A DNA stretch of 64,000 nucleotides from Acutalibacteraceae bacterium. GTDB lineage: Bacteria > Bacillota > Clostridia > Oscillospirales > Acutalibacteraceae. Positions 21,371 to 38,930 of this stretch are shown in pieces (the stretch's first letter is position 1; the number at the start of each line of letters is the position of its first letter). The notes under the pieces are model-generated. The model worked only from the letters and a program-made list of their open reading frames with translations. It did not search any database and had not been told where the DNA came from. The stretch covers positions 206 to 64,205 of the forward strand of contig JAZKYQ010000081.1 in NCBI GenBank assembly GCA_045612205.1, given 5' to 3'. The translations under genes were made by a program, and so were the position numbers.

Positions 21371-21406
21371 TTTGTAATAACTTTGTAAGAGGTTTTGTGA
21401 TATAAT
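21371..21406 (+). promoter_or_regulatory. tandem 11-bp direct-repeat operator + -10 box (site a, upstream of the histidine kinase)
   Basis: TTTGTAATAAC (21371..21381) TTTGTAAGAGG (21382..21392), 8 nt, TATAAT (21401..21406); 30 nt upstream of the start at 21436. Confidence 0.7.
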
Positions 21407-21435
21407 AAAAAAAGAATTTTAAAAGGAGATAGATT

Positions 21436-23280
21436 GTGTTGAAGGAAATGAAGATAAAAAATGAGAAGCAAAAGTTAATAATCGCTTCTTTGGTACTGTT
21501 TCTTGTGCTTTCATGTGCACTGCTTATCGATGCGGTCACGAACAGCTCTCAGGCAGAGTGGGCAATTATTCCTGACATCAGGCTTGTTGGTGAATACAAA
21601 ATCGGAGACGGTGAATGGAAGGAAATTGTTGAGGGTGAGCATATCTCTGCCACAAAAGGCGATGTCAGATTGAAAGGTGTACTTGAAATCTTAGACCCCG
21701 AAACAAACGAAGCTTTCGGACCGGTTGAAAAAGGCTCGCTGATGTTATTTACTTTTAACCACATAAATCTTGCTTTAACCGATAATGATGAGATGATCTA
21801 TGTATGTGATACAGAAAATCCCGAGCTGGGTGAGGATTTCTGCGGTGATACCTGCTTTGTAGTGGAATCTGTCGGTGAAGACGGTTACTTTGAAGCAACA
21901 ATCCGTAACTATCACCGTTTCGGAAATGAAACCGCTGTTGATGAGCTTCTTTCTTCGATGAAGCTTTATGCAAGTGACTATTCTGAAAAAATAGCTCTGC
22001 GTTCAGGACAGAATGACAGAGTGCTTGCAATAATAATCATTATTTCTGCTTTTATTGTTCTGGGTATAACAATTTTCTCAGCTTTGCTTTACAAAGATAT
22101 ATTCAGAAGTGCTTTCTTCGGTGGATTATTGATTCTTTCAGCAGGAATTTTCTTCCTTTTCACCTCAAGAGCGTTTTTCTTCTGGTCTGATAAGGTTATA
22201 GTCAACACAATGACGACCGGACTTTCCGCAATAGCTTATACTTTATTTGCTCTTTTGCATATGAAGAGTTTTATTTCAAAAAACATGCATAAAGCGGCCG
22301 ATATTGTCACATTACTTTACGGCGTTTTTATAAGCGTTCTTGTTTCTGCTTCTCTTTTCAGTGATATATATTTTTATGATGTGCTCGGAATCTGGGCTAT
22401 CGGTGCGATTGCCGTATCGCTTATCTTTATAGTGTTATCTCTTCTTTCACTGAAAAAATCATCCGGCAAACAAAAAATCTTACTGCTTTTTGTGACTGTA
22501 GGTCTTGTGCTGTTTTTAGCCGATACAGCAGCAGTATATTTTGGCTTATGGGGAACAGGATTTTTGTCTAAAATCTTTTTCCTTGTCGGCTTTGTTGCTA
22601 CGGCGGTTGTTTTCCTGCGTATCGTACCTAAAAACATTAAGGCGGCCGAAAAGGCAGAAAAGCTTGAAAAAGAAAAAATCAAGCTTGATGCCGAGCTTGC
22701 CAAAAGTCGTATTTCCACTCTTATGAGTCAGATTCATCCTCATTTTATTTACAATACTCTCGGAAGCATTGAGCAGCTTTGCGAGCTCGACCCACCAAAG
22801 GCGGCAAAGCTTGTTAACGATTTTTCAAGGTATCTCAGGGGTAATTTTGGTGAGATTGATAATCCGAAGCTCATCCGTGTTTCAAAGGAGCTTGAGCATA
22901 CGGAATACTATATCGGCATCGAAAAGGTACGCTTCCCTGATATTGAATTTGTTGCAGAAATGAACTGCAGTGATTTCAGCATCCCTGCGCTTACAATTCA
23001 GCCCTTGGTTGAGAATGCTATCAAGCACGGTATTCTTAAGAGGGACGAAGGCGGAACGGTAAAGGTCAGAATTTATGAAACTGACAGCAGTTACTTTATA
23101 ACTGTAAAGGATAACGGTGTCGGCTTTGATGTAAGTGCAATTGAACAGAAAAATCATATAGGATTAAGAAATATCAAAAGCAGACTTGAAGCAATGTGCG
23201 GCGGTATCCTTCATATTGAAAGCATAATCGGTGTAGGTACCAAGATTACAGTTGAAATTCCGAAGGAGGCAGACTTATGA
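21436..23280 (+). CDS. sensor histidine kinase, LytS/YehU-type catalytic core, with extracytoplasmic domain and multi-TM block
   Basis: 614 aa. H-box HPHFIYNTLGSI; N box LVENAIKHG; DNGVGF and GLRNI boxes. N-terminal TM, about 190-aa outside domain, then 6-7 TM helices. GTG start 7 nt after GGAG. The stop overlaps the response-regulator start (ATGA). Confidence 0.85.
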   Translation: MLKEMKIKNEKQKLIIASLVLFLVLSCALLIDAVTNSSQAEWAIIPDIRLVGEYKIGDGEWKEIVEGEHISATKGDVRLKGVLEILDPETNEAFGPVEKGSLMLFTFNHINLALTDNDEMIYVCDTENPELGEDFCGDTCFVVESVGEDGYFEATIRNYHRFGNETAVDELLSSMKLYASDYSEKIALRSGQNDRVLAIIIIISAFIVLGITIFSALLYKDIFRSAFFGGLLILSAGIFFLFTSRAFFFWSDKVIVNTMTTGLSAIAYTLFALLHMKSFISKNMHKAADIVTLLYGVFISVLVSASLFSDIYFYDVLGIWAIGAIAVSLIFIVLSLLSLKKSSGKQKILLLFVTVGLVLFLADTAAVYFGLWGTGFLSKIFFLVGFVATAVVFLRIVPKNIKAAEKAEKLEKEKIKLDAELAKSRISTLMSQIHPHFIYNTLGSIEQLCELDPPKAAKLVNDFSRYLRGNFGEIDNPKLIRVSKELEHTEYYIGIEKVRFPDIEFVAEMNCSDFSIPALTIQPLVENAIKHGILKRDEGGTVKVRIYETDSSYFITVKDNGVGFDVSAIEQKNHIGLRNIKSRLEAMCGGILHIESIIGVGTKITVEIPKEADL

Positions 23281-24056
23281 TTGCTATAGCAATAGATGAT
23301 GAACAGCTGATGCTTTATGCACTTGAAAAAGCAATAAAGGCATCAGAGGATATAGAAGAAGTTGCAGGCTTTTCAAATTGCGACGAGGCATTGGACTGGC
23401 TTGAAATCAATACTCCTGATGTGGCATTTCTTGATATTAATATGCGTGGCATCAACGGTATCGCATTGGCGGAAAAAATTACATCGATTTATCCCGATTG
23501 CAAAATAGTTTTCTGCACAGGTTATGAGGAATATGCTGTTTCAGCCTTTAAAATTCACGCTTCGGGTTATCTTCTCAAGCCTGTTTCAGCCGAGGATGTG
23601 CAAAAGGAAATTGATGTTATCAAGGGCAGAAAAATAGAAAAAGGCATCCTTAAGGCAAAATGCTTCGGTAATTTTGACGTTTCCTGCGGCGGTGAAAAGC
23701 TTACCTTCAAAAGAACAAAAAGCAAGGAAATGCTTGCTTATCTCATTGACCGTAACGGAGCAGATGTTTCCTCAAAGGAGATAGCCGCTGTGCTCTGGGA
23801 GGACGGCACAAAGGAAAACAACAGAAACTACTTTCATCAGCTTCTTTTAGATGTGCGTCATACTCTTGAAAAAGCAGGTGCAGATGATGTGCTGAAAAAG
23901 AACGGATATCTTTATTCCGTTGATACAAGCAGAATTTCCTGTGACTATTATTCTTACCTTAAAACGGGTCAGCCTGAATTTCAGGGTGAATATATGACAC
24001 AATACAGCTGGGCTGATGAAACCTGTGGCTTGCTCTGGAGTAAAAACAATAAATAA
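23277..24056 (+). CDS. response regulator: REC domain + OmpR/SARP-type winged-helix DNA-binding domain
   Basis: 259 aa. REC with IAIDDE and phospho-acceptor context VAFLDINM. C-terminal CFGNFDVSCGGEKLTFKRTKSKEMLAYLIDRNG..VSSKEIAAVLWED...YFHQLLLDVRHTL resembles SARP/OmpR wHTH. Confidence 0.85.
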   Translation: MIAIAIDDEQLMLYALEKAIKASEDIEEVAGFSNCDEALDWLEINTPDVAFLDINMRGINGIALAEKITSIYPDCKIVFCTGYEEYAVSAFKIHASGYLLKPVSAEDVQKEIDVIKGRKIEKGILKAKCFGNFDVSCGGEKLTFKRTKSKEMLAYLIDRNGADVSSKEIAAVLWEDGTKENNRNYFHQLLLDVRHTLEKAGADDVLKKNGYLYSVDTSRISCDYYSYLKTGQPEFQGEYMTQYSWADETCGLLWSKNNK

Positions 24057-24064
24057 ACTTATAA

Positions 24065-24099
24065 AAAAGATCGAATTTTTTCGGTCTTTTTGTTTTTTT
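24065..24099 (+). terminator. terminator after the two-component operon
   Basis: AAAAGATCGAA / TTCGGTCTTTT stem (one G-U), TTTT loop, long T-run. Confidence 0.7.
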
Positions 24100-24107
24100 A
24101 GAATGAT

Positions 24108-24143
24108 TTTGTAATAAGTTTGTAATACAATCTGTGTTATAAT
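24108..24143 (+). promoter_or_regulatory. tandem 11-bp direct-repeat operator + -10 box (site b, upstream of the 1808-aa surface protein)
   Basis: TTTGTAATAAG (24108..24118) TTTGTAATACA (24119..24129), 8 nt, TATAAT (24138..24143); 31 nt upstream of ATG 24174. Confidence 0.7.
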
Positions 24144-24173
24144 AGGATGTATTTTATTTAGGAGGTAAAACCT

Positions 24174-27100
24174 ATGAAAAAAGTAATAAGTATTTTATTG
24201 ACAATCATTATGCTCTTTACAATGGTTCCTGTAAGCGTTTTTGCTGCAGAGGAAATCACAGTTAATCTTGTGAGCTTTATGCGCGGAGATGTTAATGATC
24301 TTCGTTCAAGTGAGCTTTTAGAGGTACAGGTAGAGGGCTACGACGGAAACCCGAGAGAGCTCACATATAAGTGGACAAGCTCACTCGGTACATACCTTTA
24401 CATTTATAACTCACATAATATGTATGGTATCAACAACACATATGGTGAAATGGAAATCTATAACACCGATAAAAAAATCAGCCGCAACAGCAATGTTGAA
24501 GCAGACAGAGCCGGCGATAAGACTTTATCAAAAGCAGGCTTTATGTGGGCTTCTGTTTATGGTGCTTATGAATATTCCAATGTCAGTGCTTCTACTGCAC
24601 TTAAGGGCACTGTAAAAGTCGAAGTTTATGATAGTAAGGGTACTAAGCTTGGTGAAGATAGTTTCTCAAGCTTCAAGGTACACAATCTTGACGGAGACCT
24701 CGACAATGTTGTTATCGGTCTTTTCGAGGGCGACAGAATGAACGCACTTGATCTTCTCGGTCAGAGTGGTATTGTTCATATCACATGTGAACAGAGTAAA
24801 GTTTCAAGTGCTGAGATTCTTGAAGGCGATGAACACATAAAAATTGAAACTGAGAAAAAGGATAGTAATACTTACAACTACTATATTAAAGGTATAAAAG
24901 CCGGAGATAACAGCACTAATGGTGATGCTCAGCTTGAGATTAATATAAAAAAGACATCCTGTAAGTTCCACTATAACACAAGCGGTACTGCTGAGCCAAT
25001 AGTATATGTTTTCAAAAAGCCCAAGACATCAACCACCACAACAACTCTTACTCTTGTTGATGATATTGACAGCCGCTGTGAATATTTTATCAACGGTAAC
25101 AAGGGTGAAAAGCAGGATGATGGCACAATCATCTTCACAGGTCTTGATCCCAACACCAAATATACAGTAGAAGTTCGTGCCGAATACGAAGATAAGGGCA
25201 CAACCAAGTATGTTTACGGTTATGTAGAAGACACAACAAAGCCTGTTTATAAGGCTACAGTCAAGACATATCTCGACGACACAATTACTGATATCTCATC
25301 AATTCACGGTGAAGAAGTAACTCTTTACATCCGTAAGGATCTCGAGGATGCAGAATATATTGTGCTTACAAAGAACGGCACAGGTACATATGAAGCAATC
25401 GTTGAAAACGGTACATATTATCCCTGGCACTACGAAAACGGCACATACCATCAGGCAAGAAAATATGAGCTCATTATCCAGAATGCTAACGCAGAGCTTT
25501 ACCTTCACCACTACAGTGTGAAATATGACACAAACGGCGGTGCATTCAAGTCAGGCGAAGATGTTGGCACAGAGATTTACTCAAGTATGACAGCAGTAAA
25601 TGCTACTTCAAATGTTCCCGTACGTGAAGGCTATGTATTTGCAGGCTGGGAATATAACGGTAAGGTTATCACTTCAGGCAAGCAGATCACTTCATCAATC
25701 TCCGCTCCCATTACACTCAAGGCAAAATGGGAAAAGGCTGTTAACGTAATAATCAACGTTACTATTGACCACAAAACTGTGGACGGCTTTGATCCTAATC
25801 CTTCAAGAACAGAGCTTGATGTTGATTTCCTTGAAATGACTGCAAACTCACCCGCATTTGTTGAAACAGGCGACAAGCTTTATTTCAGAGAAGATAAGGT
25901 TACCGATGAAAACGGTAGTGCAAAAGCTTATACTTACTCAATTGAAAACAATGTTTCAAAATATACTGCAACAGATTATACTTACACAGGTCTTCTTGAA
26001 TCCTCAACCTTCGGTGTTGCTTTAAGTAAGTCAGGCTATGATGTAGGTACAATTGAAAAGAAACAGGATAAACTCGGTAATTGGGTTATCAATATTCCTC
26101 TTACCTATAATCCCGACGACTTTGATCTTGAATTCAGCGTTGAAATGGATGATGATGTTCCCAAGGAGCTTTATCCTGATGCTGTAATCGTTAAGGTTGC
26201 ATACTGGAATACAGATACAAATGAATGGAAAATCATTTCTCAGCAGGAAAATGCAGGCGCTGTTGTAAAGCCCGGTGTACGTGTTGACATTGATCCTAAA
26301 ACAGGCGAAGGCTCGGGCTCATATCCCGTATGGAGATATGACGGTAAAAACAACCCCTACGGCTACCGTGCAGTTGTTACCGGTTTCATTTATGACGGTT
26401 CAACAATTGTTGTACCCACAGAAAAGGATCATACAAAGGATGACAACACTGTTATCGTTACATATACTGACGGTAACTACACCGCTACAATGAGCGATAT
26501 CGCTGACGGTAAAAAGTTCAGCACATCTCTTAACGGTGCATATTACAATGATAAAACAAATGCTCAGCAGGGTACACTTCACGGTGTAATTTCAGTTGAA
26601 AAGTATGATGTTACCTTTGATGCTCAGGGTGGAACAAACGCTGAGGGCAAGGATGCTGCAAAGCAGGTTTATCGTGTTCCTGAGCTTGACGGATATAAGC
26701 CCACAATGGAAAATCACAATTTCCTTGGCTGGTACAAGGATAAGGAATGCACAATTCCTGCAGTTGAAAATGAACTTCTCACCGAAGATATTACTCTTTA
26801 TGCAAAGTGGGATAAGATTCTCACAGGTAACGTAAGAGTTGCAGGTTCATATGTTCAGAACGGCGAGATAGTAGATGTATGGGCAGTTGACCGTGCTGAC
26901 AGTGCAGTTGTAGTTCTTCAGGAAATCACTGAAACCGGTGTTTATAGCATTGACAGACAGACTGTTAATATTGTATGGCCCATGGCTGAAATGGTTTACG
27001 GTATTTCAGAGGAATATAAGTTTACAGGTCTTGATCCTGCAAAGCAGTACAGAACTGAAGTTTATGTTCTTAACTACGGCACAACCTATCAGAACTCAAC

Positions 27101-29600
27101 AACAGTAGTTGATGACGATGATGAATACGCAGACGATTACAACTCAACAGACTATGAAGCAATCTATCCCGAAAACAGCAAGTTAGAAACATTTGTAAAT
27201 GCTTATCTTTCATTTGAGCCTGCTTCATATTTCCAGCCCGTTGAGGTTGATGCAACCCTCATCGGTGCAAACTTAAGACCCGAGGATACACTCGTTCAGG
27301 TATGGTACAAGGCAACAGGCACAAGCAACGCATACCAGGTAATCAGCCAGCACACAGTTGTTCCCTACGGTATTGAGGTAGGTATGGGTGCTGACGGTAT
27401 GGATGACGGCTACTACGGCTATGTGGTATGGAACAGCTTGTATAACGGTAATCTTTATGACTATCAGGCACATCTTGATAAGATTGAAGGTCAAGCAGTT
27501 TCAGAGTGGCCCGTATCAGTGGTTTACGGTGAACCCTCACGTTACAGTCCTCTTAATAACGCTGCAACAGGTGTGCTTCAGGTTAAGCTTGTTCCTAACC
27601 GTTACGGTATTATCTATAACGAAAATTATGCTCCCGAAGGTGTAGAAGTAGTTTCTTACGGAACTCACATCTGGAGCTATGACACAGTTATTGATTACGT
27701 TCCCGTTCGTGAAGGCTATATCTTCCAGGGTTGGTATGCTAACCCCGAATGCACAGGCGATAAGGTTACAGAGATTGATGAAACTGTTGCTCAGGATACA
27801 AACCTTTACGCTAAATGGGAAGCAGAAACCGGACATGAGCTTACAGTAAACTATGTTGAAAAGTTTACAGATGCAGTGCTTGAAACTGAAATCAAGGATT
27901 ATTCATTTGACGATGTTGTAACTGCAGAAAGCCTTAAGAAGGATTTCAAGGGCTTCACATACGACAGCGCAAGTGCTGAAAGTGTAAAGATCACTAAAGA
28001 CAAAAACGAAATCACTCTTTACTATGTAAGAAACAACTACGGCTATACTGTAAACTATCTTGAGGAAGGCACAAACAAGGTTCTTGCAACTTCAAAAACT
28101 GCAGAAGCACCATTTGCTTCATTTGTAACTGAAACAGCAATCGCAATTAAAGGCTATGTTCTTACAGGTTACACCAGTCAGACAGTTACAATTACTATCG
28201 ATACAGATGCAACAAAGAACGTTATCAACTTCTACTATGCAGTTGACAACCTCGGTGGCGGCGAAGGCGGTAACGAAGGCGACGGCACACCCGACAAGTA
28301 TCAGAAGAAGGTAATCTTCAAGGTTGTCAACGGTATCTGGTCAAACGGTACAACTGAAGACATCATTCAGTATGTAACTCTTGTTAAGGACGGTAAGCTT
28401 GATGCCGAAGGTTCAGCTGAACTTAAGGCTCCCAACGGCATGATTGCAAACACAGGCTACAAGAACGGCTCATGGGATAAGGAAATTCCCTCAACCGTAA
28501 GCGGCACAGAAACACTTACATTCACCTACAGCTTTGTAAGAAGCACAACTCCGGTTGAACCGCTTGATGATGTAAGATATATTGTTGAGCATTACAAAGA
28601 AAATGCTGACGGCACATACAGCCTCGTTGAAGAGGATACAGAAATCCTCGTCGGCAAAATCGGTGAAAAGGTTACTGCAACAGAAAAGGCCTATGATGGC
28701 TACTGCCTGAATGAAAGCAAGTCAGAAGCAACTTCAAGCGGTGTGCTTAAGGCTGTCGGCAACGAAAGTGATATCGTTACACTCAAGCTTTATTATGATA
28801 TTGATAAGCTTGGAGGTGGCGAAAACGGCGACGAAGGCGACGGCACTCCCGACAAGTATCAGAAGAAGGTAATCTTCAAGGTTGTAAACGGCACATGGGC
28901 TGACGGTACAACAGCTGATAAGGTTGTTTACCTTGATCTTATGAAGGACGGCAAGTATGCACTTGACGGTACAGCTGCTCTTACAGCTCCCACAGGTATG
29001 AAGGCAAATGAAGGCTTTGAAGGCGGAGCTTGGGATATCACTCCTCCCTCTGCTGTAAGCGGTACAAACGTAGAGACATACACCTATACCTTTACTGAAA
29101 CAGCTCCGGAAGAACCTGATACTCCCGACAACCCTGACAATCCCGATACTCCTGACGAACCCGATGTTCCTGATACTCCTGTTAATCCCGACAGTCCCGA
29201 GGGAGACGGTGAAGGCGATAACGGTTCAGGTAACCTCGGCTTCAAGAATTATATTCTCTTCGGTAAGACTGACGGTATCGGCTGGTATCAGGTTTCCAAG
29301 GATGGCGGACAGCCCTATGATGTCGTATTCGGTAATTCAACATATGAGGTTGAGCCCGGTACAGAGATTATCGTCAAGGTCGGAGATCTTATGGGCGATG
29401 CATTTACCTTCTATGTAAACGGTGATGCAATTGAGCCTGACGAAAACGGAAATCTCGTTATCACAGTTGACGGATATATGCTCATCGGTGCACTCGGCTA
29501 TAAGGTTAATGTGCCTGATGTTGAAGAATCACTCAACTGGTTCCAGAAGCTTATCAAGGCAATCAAGGATTTCTTTGCAAAGCTTTTCGGTAAAAAATAA
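24174..29600 (+). CDS. giant secreted adhesin-like protein (Listeria-Bacteroides/InlB-B-type repeats, MucBP-like units, Pro/Asp linker, C-terminal amphipathic helix)
   Basis: 1808 aa with a signal peptide (LLTIIMLFTMVPVSVFA). Flg_new-type units: YSVKYDTNGGAF...VREGYVFAGWEY, YDVTFDAQGG...NHNFLGWYKDKEC, YGIIYNENY...VREGYIFQGWYANPEC. MucBP-like units: LTVNYVEKF.., YTVNYLEEG.., VRYIVEHYKEN... No LPXTG motif. Confidence 0.8.
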   Translation: MKKVISILLTIIMLFTMVPVSVFAAEEITVNLVSFMRGDVNDLRSSELLEVQVEGYDGNPRELTYKWTSSLGTYLYIYNSHNMYGINNTYGEMEIYNTDKKISRNSNVEADRAGDKTLSKAGFMWASVYGAYEYSNVSASTALKGTVKVEVYDSKGTKLGEDSFSSFKVHNLDGDLDNVVIGLFEGDRMNALDLLGQSGIVHITCEQSKVSSAEILEGDEHIKIETEKKDSNTYNYYIKGIKAGDNSTNGDAQLEINIKKTSCKFHYNTSGTAEPIVYVFKKPKTSTTTTTLTLVDDIDSRCEYFINGNKGEKQDDGTIIFTGLDPNTKYTVEVRAEYEDKGTTKYVYGYVEDTTKPVYKATVKTYLDDTITDISSIHGEEVTLYIRKDLEDAEYIVLTKNGTGTYEAIVENGTYYPWHYENGTYHQARKYELIIQNANAELYLHHYSVKYDTNGGAFKSGEDVGTEIYSSMTAVNATSNVPVREGYVFAGWEYNGKVITSGKQITSSISAPITLKAKWEKAVNVIINVTIDHKTVDGFDPNPSRTELDVDFLEMTANSPAFVETGDKLYFREDKVTDENGSAKAYTYSIENNVSKYTATDYTYTGLLESSTFGVALSKSGYDVGTIEKKQDKLGNWVINIPLTYNPDDFDLEFSVEMDDDVPKELYPDAVIVKVAYWNTDTNEWKIISQQENAGAVVKPGVRVDIDPKTGEGSGSYPVWRYDGKNNPYGYRAVVTGFIYDGSTIVVPTEKDHTKDDNTVIVTYTDGNYTATMSDIADGKKFSTSLNGAYYNDKTNAQQGTLHGVISVEKYDVTFDAQGGTNAEGKDAAKQVYRVPELDGYKPTMENHNFLGWYKDKECTIPAVENELLTEDITLYAKWDKILTGNVRVAGSYVQNGEIVDVWAVDRADSAVVVLQEITETGVYSIDRQTVNIVWPMAEMVYGISEEYKFTGLDPAKQYRTEVYVLNYGTTYQNSTTVVDDDDEYADDYNSTDYEAIYPENSKLETFVNAYLSFEPASYFQPVEVDATLIGANLRPEDTLVQVWYKATGTSNAYQVISQHTVVPYGIEVGMGADGMDDGYYGYVVWNSLYNGNLYDYQAHLDKIEGQAVSEWPVSVVYGEPSRYSPLNNAATGVLQVKLVPNRYGIIYNENYAPEGVEVVSYGTHIWSYDTVIDYVPVREGYIFQGWYANPECTGDKVTEIDETVAQDTNLYAKWEAETGHELTVNYVEKFTDAVLETEIKDYSFDDVVTAESLKKDFKGFTYDSASAESVKITKDKNEITLYYVRNNYGYTVNYLEEGTNKVLATSKTAEAPFASFVTETAIAIKGYVLTGYTSQTVTITIDTDATKNVINFYYAVDNLGGGEGGNEGDGTPDKYQKKVIFKVVNGIWSNGTTEDIIQYVTLVKDGKLDAEGSAELKAPNGMIANTGYKNGSWDKEIPSTVSGTETLTFTYSFVRSTTPVEPLDDVRYIVEHYKENADGTYSLVEEDTEILVGKIGEKVTATEKAYDGYCLNESKSEATSSGVLKAVGNESDIVTLKLYYDIDKLGGGENGDEGDGTPDKYQKKVIFKVVNGTWADGTTADKVVYLDLMKDGKYALDGTAALTAPTGMKANEGFEGGAWDITPPSAVSGTNVETYTYTFTETAPEEPDTPDNPDNPDTPDEPDVPDTPVNPDSPEGDGEGDNGSGNLGFKNYILFGKTDGIGWYQVSKDGGQPYDVVFGNSTYEVEPGTEIIVKVGDLMGDAFTFYVNGDAIEPDENGNLVITVDGYMLIGALGYKVNVPDVEESLNWFQKLIKAIKDFFAKLFGKK
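28251..29100 (+). repeat. internal duplication (two ~290-bp homologous segments, 558 bp apart)
   Basis: GGCGACGGCAC(A/T)CCCGACAAGTATCAGAAGAAGGTAATCTTCAAGGTTGT occurs at about 28279 and about 28837. Protein level: GDGTPDKYQKKVIFKVVNG(I/T)W..GTT twice. Confidence 0.8.
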
Positions 29601-29608
29601 TTGATCAT

Positions 29609-29644
29609 AAACCATCGGTGTGAACCGGTGGTTTATTGTTTCTT
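29609..29644 (+). terminator. terminator after the adhesin-like gene
   Basis: AAACCATCGG / CCGGTGGTTT stem (one G-U), 6-nt loop, then ATTGTTTCTT. Confidence 0.65.
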
Positions 29645-29695: not shown

Positions 29696-29731
29696 TTTGT
29701 AAGAGGTTTGTAAGAGGTAATATGTTAGAAT
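29696..29731 (+). promoter_or_regulatory. tandem 11-bp direct-repeat operator + -10 box (site c, upstream of the partner-switching operon)
   Basis: TTTGTAAGAGG (29696..29706) TTTGTAAGAGG (29707..29717), 8 nt, TAGAAT (29726..29731); 70 nt upstream of ATG 29801. Confidence 0.7.
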
Positions 29732-30763: not shown

Positions 30764-30775
30764 AGGAGGAAACAG

Positions 30776-33610
30776 ATGAAGCTTTTAGTTCCTGTTTTTT
30801 TAAACTGCATTTTTGTAGTAATGTTTTATCTTCTTGATAAAAAAACAAAGTTCAAGAATCTGAACTTGATATCAAAGCAAATAATGATAGGCCTTGTTTT
30901 CGGCGGCTTGTCCGCCTTTGCATCAGGTTATGGTGTTGAGATTCTCGGTACTGTGGCAAATGTCCGTGATGCCGCACCTCTTTGCGCAGGCCTTATTTTC
31001 GGCGGCCCTGCAGGTGTTATTTCAGGTGTTATAGGCGGCTTGTACCGTTTCTTTTCCGTTTACTGGGGCGGTGGAGAATACACAAGAATTGCCTGTACCC
31101 TTTCAACAATGCTTGCCGGCTTTATTTCAGCGGCACTGAGAAAATATATGTTTGACAATAAAAAGCCCACCTGGAGCTACGGTGTATTTATCACCGTTGT
31201 GTGTGAGGTTCTTCATATGCTGATGATTTTCTTTACAAATATGAGCGATTCATCATATGCATTTGAATTTGTAAAGGGTGCCACAATTCCCATGATTATC
31301 GGCAACTCAGCAGCTGTAGGGATTTCTCTTATTGTTGTTTCACTGCTTAATCACGAGGAAAGAAAGCTCGGCAAAACAAATGAACGCATTTCACAGACCT
31401 TTCAGCGAAAGCTTCTGGTGCTTATTGTTGTAGCCTGTGTAGCTACCAGTACCTATACATATATCCTTCAGAACGGAATGGCTGAAATTGAAACAAAAGA
31501 GATTTTCACATCAGCAATGAACGACGTGATTACTGACGTAAGAGGTAAATCCGATGAGAAGCTGCTGGAAATTACAGAAAAAATACGTGCTGAATATGAA
31601 AAGAATAAAGATGTTTCTTTTGACAGCCTCAAGGAAAAATACAATGTTACGGAAATCAACGTTGTTGCTTCTGACGGCACTATTGTTGCTTCTGCCGATA
31701 AAGAAATTATCGGTAAATTCAATATGAACAGCACCGAACAGTCAAAGGAATTTATGGTGCTGACCGGTGAAAAAAGCGAGTATGTGCAGATGTACAGTCC
31801 CCAGGGCATAGACGGTGTAACAATGAGAAAATATGCAGGGGTCAGCCTTTCTGAAGGCGGATTTATTCAGGTCGGCTACGATGCTGTTCAATTCCATGAT
31901 ATGCTTAACGATTTTGTTGTTGACGTGACAAAAAACCGCCATGTAGGAAGCAATGGCTTTGTTGCTGTCTGTGATGAAAAATTAAATCTTGTAACCCATA
32001 CCGGCAGAAACGGAAAGCATATTTCGACTATAGGTATAACTCCCGTTGAGGAAATGCTTCAGGGAAAATCTGCAAGTCAGCTTTATAAGACAAATATTAT
32101 CAATGATGAAACAGATTTCAGTGAAGAATATATTTATGTTTTCACCTTTGTTGAGGGCTACTGCATAATTGCCGCAATGTCTTCAGCTGAAGCTATGCTG
32201 ATGCGTGATGCATCACTTTATACAAGCATATTTATGCTTGTGCTGATTTTCGCAGCTTTGTTTATTTTTATTTATTTCCTTATCAAAAAGGTAATCATCA
32301 ACAATCTGCAGAAAATCAACGGTACTCTTTCAGAAATTACAGGCGGCAACCTCAATGTGAAGGTCGATGTCCGTTCAAATGCAGAGTTTTCGTCTCTTTC
32401 TGATGACATCAACTCAACCGTATCAACTCTTAAAAGATACATCGGTGAGGCTGCAGCAAGAATTGACAAGGAGCTCGAATATGCAAAGCAGATTCAGCTT
32501 TCGGCTCTTCCCTCGGATTTCCCCGATACAGAAAAGTATTCCATATATGCACAGATGATAGCCGCTAAAGAGGTAGGCGGAGATTTCTATGATTTCTACT
32601 CTCTTGACGATAACACAGTACTTTTCCTTGCCGCTGACGTATCGGGTAAGGGAATTCCTGCCGCTATGTTTATGATGACGGCAAAAACAATTATCCGCGG
32701 TCTTGCTGAAAGAGGACTTTCCGTTGATGAAATTTTCACTCTTGCCAACGAAAAGCTTTGTGAAAATAACGAGTCGGGTATGTTTGTAACCGCTTGGATG
32801 GGTAAGCTTGACCTTCCTACAGGCAAGCTCAGCTTCGCAAATGCAGGACATAATCCTCCGATTATTGTTCATGCAAACGGTGAATGCGAATATCTCAAGA
32901 GCCGTACAGGCTTTGTGCTTGCCGGTATGGAGGGTATGAGATACCGTTCAAATGAAATGACACTCAATAAGGGCGACAGAATTTTCCTTTATACCGACGG
33001 TGTAACAGAAGCCACGGATGAAAATGAGGCTCTTTACGGTGAAGACAGACTTATGTCTTACATCGATAAAAACAAAGAACTGAAGGCTGAAGCATTGCTT
33101 TCGGGTCTTAAAGAGGATATCGACCTTTTTGCAGGTGATGCTCCTCAGTTTGATGATATTACAATGCTTATTTTTGACTACAAAAAGAAAGAAGGTGCTG
33201 CTATGAAAGAAAAAGTCTTTCCTGCCGAAAAAGGCGCTTTGCCCGAGGTAATGGATTTTACAGAGGAATGTCTCCAAAGCTTCGACTGCCCGATGAAAAG
33301 CCTGATGGCAATCTCCATTGCTGTGGAAGAGATCTTCGTCAATATTGCAAGCTATGCCTACGGTGAGGGCACAGGTGAAGCGGCTCTTTCCTTCTGCTTT
33401 GACGAAAGCGAAAGAATGATGACTCTTGTTGTAAGTGATGAAGGCGTACCCTTCAATCCTCTTCAGAGAGAAGAGCCTGATATCACTCTTTCAGCAGCAG
33501 AGAGAGACATCGGCGGTCTTGGTATTTTTATCACAAAGAAAACCATGGACACGGTTTCTTACAGATACGAAAACGGCAGAAACATTCTCACTATGACTAA
33601 AAAAATATAA
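30776..33610 (+). CDS. multidomain sensor: 5TMR-LYT-like membrane domain + extracytoplasmic (Cache-like) domain + HAMP + PP2C/SpoIIE phosphatase + RsbW/SpoIIAB-like HATPase kinase
   Basis: 944 aa. N-terminus NVRDAAPLCAGLIFGGPAGVISGVIGGLYRF (LytS-type 5TM). HAMP-like INNLQKINGTLSEITGGNLNVKVDV. PP2C motifs GGDFYDF, AADVSGKGIPAAMFMM, NAGHNPP, LYTDGVTEA, DDITML. The C-terminal ~135 aa (from internal ATG 33203) is a paralog of the stand-alone kinase at 47446..47853. Confidence 0.85.
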   Translation: MKLLVPVFLNCIFVVMFYLLDKKTKFKNLNLISKQIMIGLVFGGLSAFASGYGVEILGTVANVRDAAPLCAGLIFGGPAGVISGVIGGLYRFFSVYWGGGEYTRIACTLSTMLAGFISAALRKYMFDNKKPTWSYGVFITVVCEVLHMLMIFFTNMSDSSYAFEFVKGATIPMIIGNSAAVGISLIVVSLLNHEERKLGKTNERISQTFQRKLLVLIVVACVATSTYTYILQNGMAEIETKEIFTSAMNDVITDVRGKSDEKLLEITEKIRAEYEKNKDVSFDSLKEKYNVTEINVVASDGTIVASADKEIIGKFNMNSTEQSKEFMVLTGEKSEYVQMYSPQGIDGVTMRKYAGVSLSEGGFIQVGYDAVQFHDMLNDFVVDVTKNRHVGSNGFVAVCDEKLNLVTHTGRNGKHISTIGITPVEEMLQGKSASQLYKTNIINDETDFSEEYIYVFTFVEGYCIIAAMSSAEAMLMRDASLYTSIFMLVLIFAALFIFIYFLIKKVIINNLQKINGTLSEITGGNLNVKVDVRSNAEFSSLSDDINSTVSTLKRYIGEAAARIDKELEYAKQIQLSALPSDFPDTEKYSIYAQMIAAKEVGGDFYDFYSLDDNTVLFLAADVSGKGIPAAMFMMTAKTIIRGLAERGLSVDEIFTLANEKLCENNESGMFVTAWMGKLDLPTGKLSFANAGHNPPIIVHANGECEYLKSRTGFVLAGMEGMRYRSNEMTLNKGDRIFLYTDGVTEATDENEALYGEDRLMSYIDKNKELKAEALLSGLKEDIDLFAGDAPQFDDITMLIFDYKKKEGAAMKEKVFPAEKGALPEVMDFTEECLQSFDCPMKSLMAISIAVEEIFVNIASYAYGEGTGEAALSFCFDESERMMTLVVSDEGVPFNPLQREEPDITLSAAERDIGGLGIFITKKTMDTVSYRYENGRNILTMTKKI

Positions 33611-33622
33611 AGGAGACTTCTT

Positions 33623-33919
33623 ATGAATATCAATATCGAAAAAACAAACGGTGTAACTCTTATGGCTCTTGAAGGCAGACTTGACACAACAACAGCACCC
33701 GAGCTTGAAAAGGCTATCAATGGTGAAGGCGCAGCTCTTAAGAGCTTAGTGCTTGATTTCAAGGGCGTTGACTACATTTCAAGTGCAGGTCTTCGAGTGC
33801 TTCTTACAGCACAGAAAAAGATGAACGCTCAGGGACATATGGAGCTTGTGGGTGTAAGCGAAGCAGTTATGGACATATTCGAAATGACAGGCTTTGCAGA
33901 CATTCTGGAGATTAAATGA
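33623..33919 (+). CDS. STAS-domain anti-sigma-factor antagonist (SpoIIAA/RsbV-like)
   Basis: 98 aa. LEGRLDTTTAPELEKAI and DYISSAGLRVLL (conserved phosphorylatable Ser context); FEMTGF. Confidence 0.85.
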   Translation: MNINIEKTNGVTLMALEGRLDTTTAPELEKAINGEGAALKSLVLDFKGVDYISSAGLRVLLTAQKKMNAQGHMELVGVSEAVMDIFEMTGFADILEIK

Positions 33920-34485
33920 TGGATAAGGTAACAAAAGCAATTGAATTTGCCGCAAAGGCTCACGACGGCATGGAAAGAAAAAAGGATAAAACACCTTATA
34001 TTCTTCATCCTCTTGAAGCAGCAGTAATTGTCGGCTCTATGACTGAGGATAAAGATGTCATCTGTGCAGCAGTGCTTCACGATGTAGTGGAGGATACTCC
34101 GATTACCATTGAAGAAATTGAAGAAAATTTCGGAGCCCGTGTAAGAGCACTTGTTGAATCGGAAACAGAGGACAAGCGTGCTGATTTGCCGCCGGAGGAC
34201 ACCTGGAGAATAAGAAAAGAGGAATCTCTTGAAGAGCTTGCAAACTGTGGCAATACCGATGTTCTTATGCTCTGGATTGGTGACAAGCTGTCCAATATGC
34301 GTTCTTTTTACAGAATATGGAGAGCCGAGGGTGACAGCATGTGGCAGTCCTTTAATCAGAAGGACCCTGCACAGCAGAAATGGTATTACAGCACTATATC
34401 CGAGCTTACTTCCTCACTCAAGGATTTTGCAGCGTGGCAGGAATATAACGAGCTTGTAAAAATTGTTTTCGGAAAGGTTAAATAA
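33916..34485 (+). CDS. HD-domain protein of the RelA/SpoT hydrolase type (small alarmone hydrolase-like)
   Basis: 189 aa. AIEFAAKAHDGMERKKDKTPYILHPLEAAVIV and AAVLHDVVEDTPITIEEIEENFGARVRALVESET match HD_4/(p)ppGpp-hydrolase motifs. The start overlaps the STAS stop (ATGA). Confidence 0.75.
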   Translation: MMDKVTKAIEFAAKAHDGMERKKDKTPYILHPLEAAVIVGSMTEDKDVICAAVLHDVVEDTPITIEEIEENFGARVRALVESETEDKRADLPPEDTWRIRKEESLEELANCGNTDVLMLWIGDKLSNMRSFYRIWRAEGDSMWQSFNQKDPAQQKWYYSTISELTSSLKDFAAWQEYNELVKIVFGKVK

Positions 34486-34486
34486 A

Positions 34487-35653
34487 ATGAATAAAATTGA
34501 ATTCAGAACAGATAAAGATATTTTATATATAAGCCTTGAGGGTAGGATTGATGCCTCAAATGCAGCTGATGTTGAAAGTGAAATCAAGGAAATAAGAAAA
34601 GCGCACCAGGGTATGCATACTGTTCTTGATGCGGACAGACTTGAGTATATTTCCAGTGCAGGTCTTCGTATAATGCTTCGCTTGAGAAAGGAAGAGGCGA
34701 AGCTTGCGATAATCAACGTTTCACCTGAGGTTTACAGCGTTTTTGAAATGACAGGCTTTACTGAAATGATTACCATTGAAAAAACATATCGCAGAATAGA
34801 TGTTTCTGACTGTGAGTTTATTGCAAAGGGTGCTAACGGTGCAGTTTACCTCTATGACGATGAAACTATAGTAAAGCAGTACTTTAACAGAGATGCTCTT
34901 CCTGAAATTATGCAGGAACGTGAAAACTCAAGAAAAGCCTTTGTTCTCGGTGTCAACACAGCAATTCCTTACGGCATTGTCCGTATCGGAGACGGCTACG
35001 GAAGCCTTACAGAGCTTCTCAATGCTACCTCGGTAACAAAGCTCATAAGAGCAAATACTGAGGATTTATCACAGAGCGTTGCTTACTTTATTGACACAAT
35101 CAAAGAGGTGCATGCAATTGAAACCGAGGAGGGGGAACTTCCTGATTTCAAAAAGTGGGTTCTTGAGTGGGTAGATTTTCTTGCAGATTACCTTGATGAA
35201 GCACACGCTCAGAAAATGCGTACACTTATTGAGGGTATTCCTGACAGTAACAACATTATTCACGGTGACTACCATACAAACAATGTAATGGTACAGAACG
35301 GTGAGCCTATCCTTATTGATATGGATACACTTGCGGTAGGTCATCCGATTCTTGAGTTCGGCTCAATGTATAATGCTTATGTAAGCTTTGGTGAGCTTGA
35401 TAAAGCCGGTATCGAGGACTTTTTCGGCTTTGATATTGCTACTGCTAAGCGTTTCTGGCGTCTTTCTCTTGCAAGATACCTCGGCACTGATGATGAAAAT
35501 GCAATTGATGATGCCGAAAACAAAGCAAAAATTATCGGTTATATGCGACTTCTCCGCCGTTGTCTGAGAAGAGATTCTGATCAAGTAACAGTAAATCACT
35601 ATAAATCAAGACTTACAGAAGCTCTTGACAAGGTTGAAACATTGGTGTTCTGA
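34487..35653 (+). CDS. STAS domain fused to an APH/choline-kinase-like phosphotransferase domain
   Basis: Track ORF starts at 34463, but ATG 34487 lies 1 nt after the upstream stop. The N-terminus (LEGRIDASNAADVESEI...EYISSAGLRIML...FEMTGF) is a STAS paralog. The C-terminus has Brenner/APH motifs IIHGDYHTNNVMV and ILIDMDT. Confidence 0.75.
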   Translation: MNKIEFRTDKDILYISLEGRIDASNAADVESEIKEIRKAHQGMHTVLDADRLEYISSAGLRIMLRLRKEEAKLAIINVSPEVYSVFEMTGFTEMITIEKTYRRIDVSDCEFIAKGANGAVYLYDDETIVKQYFNRDALPEIMQERENSRKAFVLGVNTAIPYGIVRIGDGYGSLTELLNATSVTKLIRANTEDLSQSVAYFIDTIKEVHAIETEEGELPDFKKWVLEWVDFLADYLDEAHAQKMRTLIEGIPDSNNIIHGDYHTNNVMVQNGEPILIDMDTLAVGHPILEFGSMYNAYVSFGELDKAGIEDFFGFDIATAKRFWRLSLARYLGTDDENAIDDAENKAKIIGYMRLLRRCLRRDSDQVTVNHYKSRLTEALDKVETLVF

Positions 35654-35654
35654 T

Positions 35655-36221
35655 ATGAAAAATATACTTTTTATAAATGCTTGCTGCAGAGACAGCTCTC
35701 GCACAAATGAATTGGCACAGTGCTTGCTTGACAACCTGAACGGTCAGGTCAAAGCAGTAAATCTCTATGAGGAAAATCTGAAACCCATTGATGCAGAATT
35801 GCTTTTTAAAAGAGACAGTTTACTCAAAGAAGATAAAACAGATGATGAAATGTTTACTTTGGCAAAGCAGTTCTCTTTAGCTGATGCAATAGTTATTGCT
35901 GCACCTTATTGGGATCTTATGTTTCCCTCAATACTCAAGGTTTATCTTGAAAACATAACCGTATGCGGTGTAACCTTCCGTTACTCAGAAAAAGGAATTC
36001 CTCAGTCTCTTTGTAAAGCGGAAAATCTTTATTATGTCACAACATCAGGAGGCTTTATCGGTGAAAACAATTTCGGATTTGATTATGTAAAGGCTCTTGC
36101 TACGGGCTTTTTCGGAATCGGTAATGTAAGCTGCTTTTCAGCCGAAGGACTTGATATTTACGGCGCTGATGTCGGCACAATTATGCAAAAAGCAAAAGAA
36201 AATATTAAAAGAGGGATATGA
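35655..36221 (+). CDS. flavodoxin-fold NAD(P)H-dependent oxidoreductase (FMN reductase/azoreductase-like)
   Basis: Track ORF starts at 35625, but ATG 35655 lies 1 nt after the upstream stop. MKNILFINACCRDSSRT and ADAIVIAAPYWDLMFPSILKVYLENI resemble the Flavodoxin_2/FMN_red families. Confidence 0.6.
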   Translation: MKNILFINACCRDSSRTNELAQCLLDNLNGQVKAVNLYEENLKPIDAELLFKRDSLLKEDKTDDEMFTLAKQFSLADAIVIAAPYWDLMFPSILKVYLENITVCGVTFRYSEKGIPQSLCKAENLYYVTTSGGFIGENNFGFDYVKALATGFFGIGNVSCFSAEGLDIYGADVGTIMQKAKENIKRGI

Positions 36222-36231
36222 ATCCGCTTTA

Positions 36232-36266
36232 TTTGTAAGCGGTATGTAATACCGGATGTGTAAAAT
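36232..36266 (+). promoter_or_regulatory. tandem 11-bp direct-repeat operator + -10 box (site d, degenerate second repeat)
   Basis: TTTGTAAGCGG (36232..36242) TATGTAATACC (36243..36253), 7 nt, TAAAAT (36261..36266); 39 nt upstream of ATG 36305. Confidence 0.55.
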
Positions 36267-36304
36267 ATACCATACAATAATTTATTAAAAAAGGAGAATT
36301 TTTT

Positions 36305-36820
36305 ATGAAAAAGAAATTAGGCTTTATAGGTATCGGCGTCATTGTCGTACTGGTTGCTGCTATTATTTCAGGAGCATTTACAGGTGGTTTTCAGTCTGTT
36401 CCCCAACCTGAAATCAAAGAGGGTGAGTTTGATTTCACACTTACTTATGGGGTAGACGGTGAAATCAAAAAAATTGAAGGTACTTATGTATGTGAATTTG
36501 ACGGCGTGTCAAGAGCAATTGACGGTGTAAGCCGTGACTGGACAGGCTACATAAAGGATCACGATGATTTTACTGATTATGAAATCAAAACAACTGATAA
36601 GGGCGTAATTATGGTAAGTCTTGATATCTGTCCTGAGTTCTTTATGTCTGATCCGAATTATGATAATATAGTGTCCGGCAAGGATAATACCAAGCCTGAG
36701 CCTTATCTTTATATCAAATCAGGAGAGCCTTCAGATGAAGCTTTCTTGGATTATACAGGCGATGATGTGAAAATCATCAGCTTTGAATATGACCAACCGA
36801 TTGAAAATACATACAGATAA
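36305..36820 (+). CDS. hypothetical N-terminally anchored exported protein
   Basis: 171 aa with one N-terminal TM/signal-anchor helix (FIGIGVIVVLVAAIISGAF). No family recognised. Confidence 0.6.
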   Translation: MKKKLGFIGIGVIVVLVAAIISGAFTGGFQSVPQPEIKEGEFDFTLTYGVDGEIKKIEGTYVCEFDGVSRAIDGVSRDWTGYIKDHDDFTDYEIKTTDKGVIMVSLDICPEFFMSDPNYDNIVSGKDNTKPEPYLYIKSGEPSDEAFLDYTGDDVKIISFEYDQPIENTYR

Positions 36821-36832
36821 AGGAAGTTTAAA

Positions 36833-37507
36833 ATGATAAAAAACAGAACGGCACAATTGATTTATCAGACAATTTATTGCACGCTCGGATTTGTGGGTAT
36901 TGTTTCCTGCACAGGAATATTTGATGATATAACCCAATTCCGTTGGGATTTCTATGTGCACTTTACAAATATAAGCAATTTCTTTTGTATCGGAATAATG
37001 CTTGCCGCGCTTATTCAGACAGCAAAGAAAAAAGAGGACAGCTTTGTTAAAACAGCTCCTCTTCTTAAGTTTATCGGTATGCTGGGTATATTGCTCACAT
37101 TCCTTGTGTTCAATATTATGCTTGCCGGCAACCGTGACCCTCAGCTTAACTGGAGAATCGGCAGCCTTACCTTCCATGTAGTTCTTCCTATTATGTATGT
37201 TGCAGATTGGTTCCTTTTTTATGAACGCAGAAAATGTAAGTGGTATTATCCTCTTGCCTCAATTGCTTTTCCGCTTGCATACCTTATCTTTATTTTCATT
37301 CAGGCGGCAATTATGAAGTTCGATACTTCAATACTTATTCCAGGCACCGAGACACCTCTCATTTATCCCTATTTCTTTGTTAACCTTGAAACCCAGGGAG
37401 TAGGCGGTGTAGCAAAGTGGGTTGTTATTCTTCTTGCGGCATTTGTTGTGGTAGGCTTTGTATTTTTCGGACTTGACAAGCTGGGTAAGAAAAAGTCCAT
37501 GAAATGA
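36833..37507 (+). CDS. polytopic integral membrane protein (possibly Pr6Pr-family-like)
   Basis: 224 aa with about 6 hydrophobic helices. FRWDFYVHFTNISNFF resembles my memory of the Pr6Pr family, but this is a weak call. Confidence 0.55.
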   Translation: MIKNRTAQLIYQTIYCTLGFVGIVSCTGIFDDITQFRWDFYVHFTNISNFFCIGIMLAALIQTAKKKEDSFVKTAPLLKFIGMLGILLTFLVFNIMLAGNRDPQLNWRIGSLTFHVVLPIMYVADWFLFYERRKCKWYYPLASIAFPLAYLIFIFIQAAIMKFDTSILIPGTETPLIYPYFFVNLETQGVGGVAKWVVILLAAFVVVGFVFFGLDKLGKKKSMK

Positions 37508-37544
37508 TAAGCTTAACTGTGTCAGCTTCAGGGAGGAAATTAAA

Positions 37545-38768
37545 ATGAATAAAATTGTTAAACGAGCTCTTATTGTAATTGCGGTGATATTTGTGATTAT
37601 TGCGGCTGTGCTTACACTTAAGCTTGCAGTAATTGATTACACGGCGGATAAGCACTCACAAGGTGCTGTTACTGACGCTTCTTCAGACAAGGTTGTATAT
37701 GAGGATGCTGTCACCACAGGCTTTAAGCGTGAGCATGTTATGGCTGACTGGAAAACCCTCAACCAATCATATATACCGAATTATCTTTCGGGTTCTGCGG
37801 TACCTATGGACGGCACAAACGGTAATCCAAATTATCTTGTGCCCGGTCAGACTGAGGATATGATACCTCAAGGCCTGACTTACCTGCCCCAAAAGGATTG
37901 GATTCTTATTTCATCCTACGATAAAAGTGAGAAAAATCCAAGTGTAGTTTTTGCTCTTGACAGAGAAACAGGTAATTTTGTGGCTCAGTTCAATCTTTAC
38001 ACTCCCGACGGTGAGCCCTGGATGTGTCACGCAGGAGGTATAGCAGTTTCGGATTATAACCTCTATGTTACAAGCGACAGCGGTGTTGCTTATTTCCCTC
38101 TTAGTGACCTTGATGTTGAAAAGGGTACAGTTAAGGATATTGCATACAAGGAAACTATTAATTTCGGTCAGTTGGGCATAACCTATTCAGCTTACATCAG
38201 CGCTGCTGACGGTATGCTCTGGGCTGGTAACTTCTATTCAAACTCACCTTTGAGTCCTCCGCTTGCAAAAATGGGCTTTATAGGTAAAGACTGGGTTTGG
38301 AAGCCCAACGATGAATATTTTAACGCCATTTTAGGCTACAAGCTTTCAGGTGACTCATCTGAAGCAGAATGGGAAGCTTTAAAGGCGATCAAGGACAACG
38401 CAAGCAATGTTGTAAACGTGGATAACACAATGGACTGCATTCAGGGCATTTCCTTCAGAAAGCTTGACGACAACACCTATAAAATGTATCTTTCAAGAAC
38501 CGTGGACGGAAGTATCGGTGCCGCAGTTGCAGCTGCAACAGTTGAATTTACTGAAAATATCGTTTATGTAAATGAAAGCAACTTCAAGCTTCACGATAAC
38601 CTTCCCGGCGCAGAGGGTATTGTGTTTATCGGCGATGAATTATATATTCTTTATGAATCAGGTGCATTGAGTAACTTCGATGAAATTGTCAATAAGCTTA
38701 CCTGGAATCAGTACATCAAGGATTGCACAGATGTTATCTGGAAGATAAGTGAAAGCGCTTTGGTGTAA
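37545..38768 (+). CDS. hypothetical N-terminally anchored extracytoplasmic protein
   Basis: 407 aa with an N-terminal TM helix (ALIVIAVIFVIIAAVLTL). The remainder is beta-rich with repeated hydrophobic/Gly patterns. No family recognised. Confidence 0.6.
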   Translation: MNKIVKRALIVIAVIFVIIAAVLTLKLAVIDYTADKHSQGAVTDASSDKVVYEDAVTTGFKREHVMADWKTLNQSYIPNYLSGSAVPMDGTNGNPNYLVPGQTEDMIPQGLTYLPQKDWILISSYDKSEKNPSVVFALDRETGNFVAQFNLYTPDGEPWMCHAGGIAVSDYNLYVTSDSGVAYFPLSDLDVEKGTVKDIAYKETINFGQLGITYSAYISAADGMLWAGNFYSNSPLSPPLAKMGFIGKDWVWKPNDEYFNAILGYKLSGDSSEAEWEALKAIKDNASNVVNVDNTMDCIQGISFRKLDDNTYKMYLSRTVDGSIGAAVAAATVEFTENIVYVNESNFKLHDNLPGAEGIVFIGDELYILYESGALSNFDEIVNKLTWNQYIKDCTDVIWKISESALV

Positions 38769-38894
38769 GCTTCGCAAGAGTTAAAATTACAATATGTAAC
38801 ACAGAGTGAAAAGTTATGTGTTCTGTTTTTTGTTTAAAGAATATTGAGTCGATTATCCTGAATTTTTTTTGAGAAAATTTTTATTTACGCCTTA

Positions 38895-38930
38895 TTTGTA
38901 AGAGGTTTGTAAGAGGTTGCAGAGTATAAT
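38895..38930 (+). promoter_or_regulatory. tandem 11-bp direct-repeat operator + -10 box (site e, upstream of the small membrane protein and the 1263-aa protein)
   Basis: TTTGTAAGAGG (38895..38905) TTTGTAAGAGG (38906..38916), 8 nt, TATAAT (38925..38930). It is identical to site c over 24 bp (ATTTGTAAGAGGTTTGTAAGAGGT). Confidence 0.7.

Follow-up and report, generated by a model that had tools for sequence, protein, structure and literature searches.

The window analysed here, a 64-kb stretch of DNA (64,000 nucleotides (nt)) from an Acutalibacteraceae bacterium, carries a two-component system together with five pairs of abutting 11-bp direct repeats, each placed just upstream of a -10 hexamer in front of a transcription unit on the same strand. 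One pair precedes the operon of the histidine kinase and the response regulator, and the other four precede a gene for a giant surface protein and three operons that encode signalling, membrane and secreted proteins; together they make up an island of 22 kb. We examined these repeat pairs as candidate operators of the adjacent response regulator, which would activate the five units in the manner of the SARP family of activators. The features are given below in the order in which they lie in the window; for each operator the two repeats are followed by the spacer to the -10 hexamer and by the hexamer itself.

21371..21392, + strand: predicted operator a, TTTGTAATAAC TTTGTAAGAGG, 8 nt, -10 TATAAT at 21401-21406, with TGn; promoter of the kinase/regulator operon
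21436..23280, + strand: sensor histidine kinase of 614 amino acids (aa), from Pfam and hydropathy
23277..24056, + strand: response regulator, 259 aa, with a receiver domain (REC), a predicted SARP-like winged helix and two BTA-like helices
24064..24091, + strand: intrinsic terminator of the kinase/regulator operon, directly before operator b
24108..24129, + strand: predicted operator b, TTTGTAATAAG TTTGTAATACA, 8 nt, -10 TATAAT at 24138-24143, with TGn
24174..29600, + strand: target 1, behind operator b; secreted 1808-aa surface protein with Listeria-Bacteroides repeats and fn3
29607-29636, + strand: terminator of target 1, just upstream of operator c
29696..29717, + strand: predicted operator c, TTTGTAAGAGG TTTGTAAGAGG, 8 nt, -10 TAGAAT at 29726-29731, with TGn
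29801..36221, + strand: target operon 2, behind operator c; six genes, from Pfam
36232..36253, + strand: predicted operator d, TTTGTAAGCGG TATGTAATACC, 7 nt, -10 TAAAAT at 36261-36266
36305..38768, + strand: target operon 3; 171-aa exported protein, 224-aa Pr6Pr-family membrane protein and 407-aa membrane-anchored protein
38895..38916, + strand: predicted operator e, TTTGTAAGAGG TTTGTAAGAGG, 8 nt, -10 TATAAT at 38925-38930
38946..43095, + strand: target operon 4; small protein with two transmembrane helices (38946-39227) and secreted 1263-aa protein (39304-43095)

The start codon of the regulator gene overlaps the stop codon of the kinase gene (ATGA). The kinase begins with one transmembrane helix and about 160 aa of extracellular domain, after which come six more transmembrane helices, a PF06580 domain of the LytS/YesM type (E 5e-20) and HATPase_c. 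Target operon 2 opens with a 320-aa membrane-anchored protein, a 944-aa fusion of 5TMR-LYT, HAMP, PP2C(SpoIIE) and RsbW-like domains, and a STAS protein, and continues with an HD_4 hydrolase (RelA/SpoT-type HD), a STAS-APH kinase fusion and a flavodoxin-like protein. Its partner-switching module, with these unusual fusions, occupies 30776-35653; no sigma factor gene was found among the open reading frames (ORFs) scanned in the window. In target operon 4, a segment of the 1263-aa protein resembles aerolysin (weakly) and parasporin-2 (2ztb, E 2e-5). For the 320-aa protein and the 407-aa protein of target operon 3, sequence searches of the PDB gave no informative match.

To measure how exceptional the repeat pairs are, we scanned both strands of the window with the pattern TTTGTAAKN3TWTGTAAK and used 100 dinucleotide shuffles as the control. 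The pattern has five matches in 64 kb, beginning at 21371, 24108, 29696, 36232 and 38895 and all on the + strand, and none was found in the shuffled windows (0/100). All five tandem pairs are intergenic, lie on the coding strand of the downstream unit and end 7-8 nt 5' of a -10 hexamer. Their likeness to one another is confined to the 22 bp of the repeats and the -10, with unrelated flanks, and sites c and e have the same sequence across 24 bp. The single 11-mer, with up to two mismatches allowed, has 51 matches in the window against 44 expected, so the signal resides in the tandem arrangement. In a consensus scan for TTGACA-like -35 elements at 16-18 nt spacing, none of the five sites gave a predicted -35/-10 pair, nor do the 105 related sites that we profiled show a recognisable -35. 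The five-site architecture with its sequences, spacers and -10 hexamers, the identity of c and e and the absence of a properly spaced -35 had all been put forward in a preliminary description of this DNA, and each is borne out by these scans. The same description placed the sites 30-70 nt upstream of start codons, which holds when the distance is taken from the -10 (30, 31, 70 and 39 nt for a to d, and 16 or 49 nt for e).

It had also proposed a search with a position weight matrix (PWM). We trained such a matrix on 26 sites from relatives, excluding the window sites from the training set, and it recovered precisely the five intergenic sites of the window, with scores of 24.8-33.9 bits. The next-best match in the window scored 13.8 bits and was site a shifted by one repeat, and the highest score in 20 shuffled windows was 14.9 bits. 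We considered one further candidate and rejected it: a lone perfect half-site, TTTGTAATAGG, at 43255..43265 on the + strand, followed after 8 nt with TGn by TAATAT (to 43279). This half-site has no upstream partner repeat and scores below the PWM background, and it is not conserved, two distant homologues of the downstream 140-aa ORF (43376-43798) being without it; it was excluded from the regulon.

We then turned to related genomes, with each species represented by one genome, and a search for regulator homologues gave 80 loci, selected solely for encoding such a homologue. These fall into clade A, with 23 loci of about 90% regulator identity from Acutalibacteraceae genomes of animal-gut metagenomes, and clade B, with 57 loci from more distant Oscillospirales at 56-66% regulator identity. 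The relaxed pattern TTGT[AC]A-N5-TTGT[AC]A has 113 matches in the 1.08 Mb formed by the window and the 80 loci, and 110 of these are on the strand of the regulator gene. Of 110 unique sites, 87-96 (the figure varies with the way the hexamer is called) have a TAnnnT hexamer exactly 8 nt 3' of the repeats, and TGn is present at 74 of the 96 sites with TAnnnT at this distance; the -10 is a sigma-A TATAAT with a TRTGn extension. Within the half-site profile, positions 1-8 (TTTGTAAK) are nearly invariant and positions 9-11 are variable. In nearly all loci the first site lies directly 3' of the regulator terminator, so that the arrangement of terminator and operator is kept, and the operators precede the same target gene families despite changes in gene order across loci.

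The two clades differ in the position of the site relative to the kinase gene. Clade A has a site upstream of the kinase gene in 20/20 loci and clade B in 0/33, and by this comparison of sequences autoregulation is predicted to be specific to the clade of the window. The preliminary description had the adjacent regulator controlling all five promoters, its own included; this proposal now has strong comparative support from linkage in about 80 genomes of gut Oscillospirales, with autoregulation limited to the window's clade. In clade A, orthologous sites stand before homologues of three proteins (the surface protein, the 320-aa protein and the aerolysin-like protein) and before the Pr6Pr operon; orthologues of site d with the 7-nt spacer are found in L009 and L021, and those of site e before aerolysin-like homologues in L012, L014, L015 and L019. 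Clade B has a single site (TTTGTAAGARG TTTGTCAYACC, 8 nt, TATAAT or TATACT), which leads either to Pr6Pr or to an operon starting with a protein of about 330 aa. In L078, the one clade B locus that we read through, the ~330-aa protein is followed by Pr6Pr, then by a homologue of the 320-aa protein and the beginning of a 5TMR-LYT protein. Across the clades Pr6Pr keeps 75-80% identity, and many clade B loci, about 18, have it as the first gene found 3' of the operator. The partner-switching genes and Pr6Pr accompany the regulator in 19-41 of the 80 loci, and the range for the genes of target operon 2 is 26-41.

Several loci carry variants of these elements. Within clade B (L024-L080), where the upstream and downstream half-sites differ systematically, a few loci (L039, L076) have TTTGTAAC and TTTGTGAY in their place, and TTTGT is the one stretch that all variants have in common. 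In L038 (12443-12475), and also in L149, L133 and L198, three or more TTTGTAAG-type repeats abut one another, the array of L198 being longer; by analogy with SARP sites that have extra repeats, they may reflect higher-order binding. In L001-L004 the leader of the kinase operon extends for about 90-120 nt after the operator and contains a second, TGnTATAAT-like -10, which may serve as a constitutive promoter that sustains basal expression. The kinase operon of the window has no second -10, and 43 nt separate its repeats from the start codon.

As a background control we scanned metagenomes at large for TTTGTAAGN3TTTGTAAKA, which matched at least 120 contigs, mostly unrelated environmental ones. 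Among the matches listed, 13 of about 126 repeat pairs have TAnnnT at +8 (10%, versus 87% at the regulator loci), and only two contigs also encode a regulator homologue, both with the -10 at +8. One of these two, the distant relative L142, which the scan brought up by chance, has a G+C content (GC) of 27%. Its regulator (1225-2352, - strand; 375 aa) has REC, weak Trans_reg_C and BTAD (BTAD E 4.7e-13) and is 30% identical to that of the window, and its kinase is of the HisKA type. The L142 operator at 1103-1122 on the - strand consists of TTTGTAAGAGG TTTGTAAGAGG, 8 nt and TAAAAT and precedes a CheY-like gene. No DNA-binding protein other than the regulator is shared by clade A, clade B and L142, and the kinase type and the neighbouring genes differ in L142. 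Since L142 has an identical operator, the operator may be general to the whole family of regulators that join a receiver to a SARP-type domain (REC-SARP).

The receiver domain of the window regulator is readily recognised (PF00072, E 1.4e-23), and D7, D8, D53, T81 and K101 are invariant across 16 homologues. Its best NCBIfam matches are BtsR and LytR rather than an OmpR-type receiver, and in sequence searches of the PDB it comes closest to 6m8o ('DNA-binding response regulator') and MrkE, with NarL/DesR-type receivers next. The output domain reaches 16.4 bits against Trans_reg_C (PF00486; E 0.0095), which is below the gathering score of 26.2, and a few homologues carry a precomputed PF00486 match. 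Pfam gave neither a LytTR domain nor a BTAD (PF03704) match in the regulator, so that the complete BTAD of the SARP and REC-wHTH-BTAD families (wHTH, winged helix-turn-helix) is absent from it by this measure. Full-length sequence and profile searches of the PDB returned receiver domains only, and a profile of the C-terminal domain matched EmbR weakly (E 0.25); as sequence searches thus reach only receivers or a marginal EmbR, a fold search was needed for the output domain.

An AlphaFold2 model of residues 118-259, built on a shallow alignment of 20 sequences (pLDDT 80.5), has a winged helix followed by two helices (about 45 residues). Its top Foldseek matches in the PDB are two SARPs, EmbR (2ff4, 2fez) and, best of all, AfsR as seen in its complex for transcription initiation (8hvr_I, E 2e-6, TMq 0.71; also 8k60). 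The effector domains of OmpR, PhoB and VanR rank next, covering an 85-residue core alone (TMq about 0.5). From the receiver matches, the fold matches and the missing BTAD match, we read the regulator as a LytR-like receiver fused to a DNA-binding domain that is, in the model, SARP-like and followed by a truncated BTA domain. The preliminary description had named it a REC-wHTH regulator against the background of OmpR, PhoB and SARP proteins; with Trans_reg_C below threshold it is not a classical OmpR/PhoB protein, and by fold the SARPs are closest. With its 259 aa it falls in a subfamily of short proteins (about 256-259 aa) that numbers at least 1619 clusters at 90% identity, and the JGI label of close homologues is 'two-component SAPR family response regulator'. 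In a homologue search with the C-terminal profile, the top 120 matches were all of this short family, with no full-length BTAD protein among them.

The anatomy of the operators is that of SARP targets. These have direct repeats at an 11- or 22-bp period, with the 3' repeat 8 bp from the -10 (PMC10936776). In the cryo-EM structure of AfsR, the afs box, made up of two 11-bp repeats with their centre at -29.5, overlaps a poor -35, and each protomer touches the first 8 bp of its repeat and leaves the last 3 untouched (PMC10936776). The sites described here share with the targets of AfsR, ActII-ORF4, DnrI and EmbR the 11-bp repeats, the 8+3 conservation, the 8-nt spacing and a poor or missing -35, and the modelled DNA-binding fold of the window regulator appears closest to AfsR and EmbR, including the first BTA helices. 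There are also differences. In AfsR the BTA domain makes many contacts to RNA polymerase and within the dimer, and the window regulator has a stub of it. SARPs are gated by expression level, by NOD/TPR domains or by Ser/Thr phosphorylation, whereas the window regulator is presumably gated by its receiver and the histidine kinase. Their half-site is TCGAG-like and not TTTGTAAK, and their hosts are Actinobacteria with antibiotic clusters; here the host belongs to gut Clostridia (Acutalibacteraceae) and the predicted targets are envelope, secreted and signalling proteins.

Another related group is COG3947, the catalogued REC-wHTH-BTAD ('SAPR family') response regulators. The JGI label is shared, and the full-length member in L142 has the same operator and spacing, but the window regulator is short with a BTAD stub and is paired with a PF06580 kinase, in contrast to the HisKA kinase of L142. 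Our literature search found no operator, regulon or experimental study for the REC-SARP/SAPR family, short or full-length; a paper on CD1586/CD1688 of C. difficile mentions neither SARP nor OmpR nor direct repeats.

Operators of the PhoB/OmpR family likewise consist of two direct repeats, spaced by one helical turn and standing beside the -10 instead of a -35, on which a winged-helix dimer binds in tandem, and CiaR and WalR are direct-repeat regulators of the OmpR family in Firmicutes. The likeness of the proteins themselves is that of the 85-residue core, with Trans_reg_C below threshold and a receiver that is LytR/BtsR-like. A Pho box has two 11-bp repeats with CTGTCAT-type half-sites at about 10 bp from the -10. 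Against this definition the window sites are analogous in architecture and differ in half-site sequence and in their 8-bp distance. The sites had been called Pho-box-like in the preliminary description; their 8-bp distance and 8+3 pattern point to SARPs rather than to the Pho box. Of the LytS/LytR systems the window system shares the PF06580 and HATPase_c kinase core and a receiver near BtsR/LytR, but its output domain is not LytTR, and where LytTR sites have 9-bp repeats separated by 12-13 bp, the period found here is 11 bp.

We estimate at about 75% the probability that the adjacent two-component system uses the five repeat pairs as operators and through them activates five units in a SARP-like way; as judged from the sequence comparisons, the neighbouring response regulator very probably docks on the double 11-bp repeat. 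In the mechanism that we propose, the seven-transmembrane kinase would phosphorylate the 259-aa regulator at D53. The signal sensed by the kinase is probably extracellular or in the envelope, a placement that we base on its extracellular domain and seven-transmembrane architecture. Two regulator protomers would bind head-to-tail, one per 11-bp repeat, each reading the first 8 bp (TTTGTAAK), and if the start site is assumed to lie about 7 nt 3' of the -10, the bound pair would cover about -20 to -41. The dimer would there substitute for the contact of the -35 with sigma region 4 and recruit sigma-A RNA polymerase, as in the 'sigma adaptation' of AfsR, and it would act on promoters with a good, usually TGn-extended sigma-A -10 and without a -35. 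The kinase/regulator operon would receive positive feedback in the window's clade. Four units would be co-induced with it: the giant surface protein, the membrane-linked partner-switching module, the Pr6Pr operon and the aerolysin-like secreted protein. The operator census of the host genome on which this regulon is based covers the 64-kb window.

Three observations weigh against this proposal. The downstream repeat in clade B is TTTGTCAYACC instead of TTTGTAAK, so the two half-sites would not be equivalent there. The sequence similarity to SARPs is marginal, and the assignment depends on a predicted structure for which the alignment was shallow (20 sequences). The regulator lacks most of the BTA domain, having two helices after the winged helix, and hence the activation surface must differ from that of AfsR, or the mode of activation may differ.

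The truncation of this activation domain would also suit a regulator that binds the repeats as a repressor and blocks RNA polymerase until the signal releases it, all the more as the site fills the core promoter between the -10 and the would-be -35, a classic repressor position. We nevertheless regard repression as unlikely, because the five promoters and the 105 related sites have no recognisable -35 at 16-18 nt, and promoters of this kind should be weak without an activator, so that little would be left to repress. In geometry the sites match promoters activated by SARPs, and a strict 8-nt phase relative to the -10, which a repressor does not need, is what activators in contact with the polymerase typically show. 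A good deal less probable is that another factor, encoded elsewhere, binds the repeats and that their linkage to the two-component system is coincidental or indirect. Such a factor could lie beyond the 64 kb over which the host genome was sampled, but the loci were chosen by the regulator gene alone and yet have the site directly 3' of the regulator in nearly all cases; moreover, clade A, clade B and L142 share no second DNA-binding protein, and the fold class of the regulator is known to read 11-bp direct repeats at such a position. Least probable of all, despite a partner-switching module (the usual controller of an alternative sigma factor) within the island and the 24-bp identity of c and e, is that the repeats are an element read by RNA polymerase itself (alternative sigma, UP-like) or the remnant of a duplicated promoter cassette, given that the -10 is the canonical sigma-A TATAAT with TRTGn extension, that the scanned window ORFs yielded no sigma factor gene, that the flanks are unrelated beyond the 22 bp and the -10, and that repeats at the helical turn with 8+3 conservation suit a dimeric winged-helix protein and not a sigma factor.

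For activation of the five units by the adjacent regulator, some of the ground is already known: response regulators with a direct-repeat operator beside the -10 have been described, and REC-SARP architectures have been catalogued. What appears to be new, as predicted from the sequences, is the short BTA-truncated subfamily, its pairing with a LytS-type kinase and its TTTGTAAG-type operator of SARP geometry in gut Clostridia, together with a conserved predicted regulon centred on Pr6Pr and the partner-switching module. We also put forward, tentatively and as somewhat less probable than its contrary, that SARP-type activation reaches beyond Actinobacteria in the form of phosphorylation-gated, nearly BTA-less 'mini-SARPs' with a TTTGTAAG-type family-wide operator, placed here atop a partner-switching tier without a visible sigma factor. 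If true, this would extend SARP 'sigma adaptation' to Firmicutes-type sigma-A promoters under His-Asp phosphorylation control, and activation by a nearly BTA-less protein would show how much of the BTA domain is needed.

The analysis gives a testable predicted operator and regulon for a family that is abundant in uncultured gut and rumen Oscillospirales, and the PWM can be used for regulon annotation in hundreds of metagenome-assembled genomes. The 22-bp operator with its -10 would be a compact, portable signal-dependent promoter module for Clostridia. The predicted adhesin-like, aerolysin-like and partner-switching targets suggest a switch in the state of the surface or of host interaction.

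The remainder of the window holds several other features. Upstream of the island, a 1244-aa protein with a transglutaminase-like core and fn3 is encoded at 13289-17023, and the PWM scan found no operator before it. Directly upstream of operator a, at 18132-21155, lie two paralogous genes in tandem for B12-binding radical SAM proteins (490 and 492 aa), in a stretch with a GC of 33-38% compared with 40% window-wide. A second RsbW-like kinase (47446-47853, - strand) and a STAS protein (47135-47431, - strand) are encoded directly upstream of a gene resembling those of non-ribosomal peptide synthetases (44112-47105, - strand); the product of the latter is a single module with adenylation, carrier and condensation domains, an odd partner for partner-switching proteins. 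Finally, the region at 50786-63340 is of low GC and looks mobile, with a Mob_Pre relaxase (51795-52565), a helix-turn-helix protein (52665-53945, - strand), a 2159-aa RHS-repeat protein (54889-61368) and an RHS fragment (62357-63340), which suggests a polymorphic-toxin locus.

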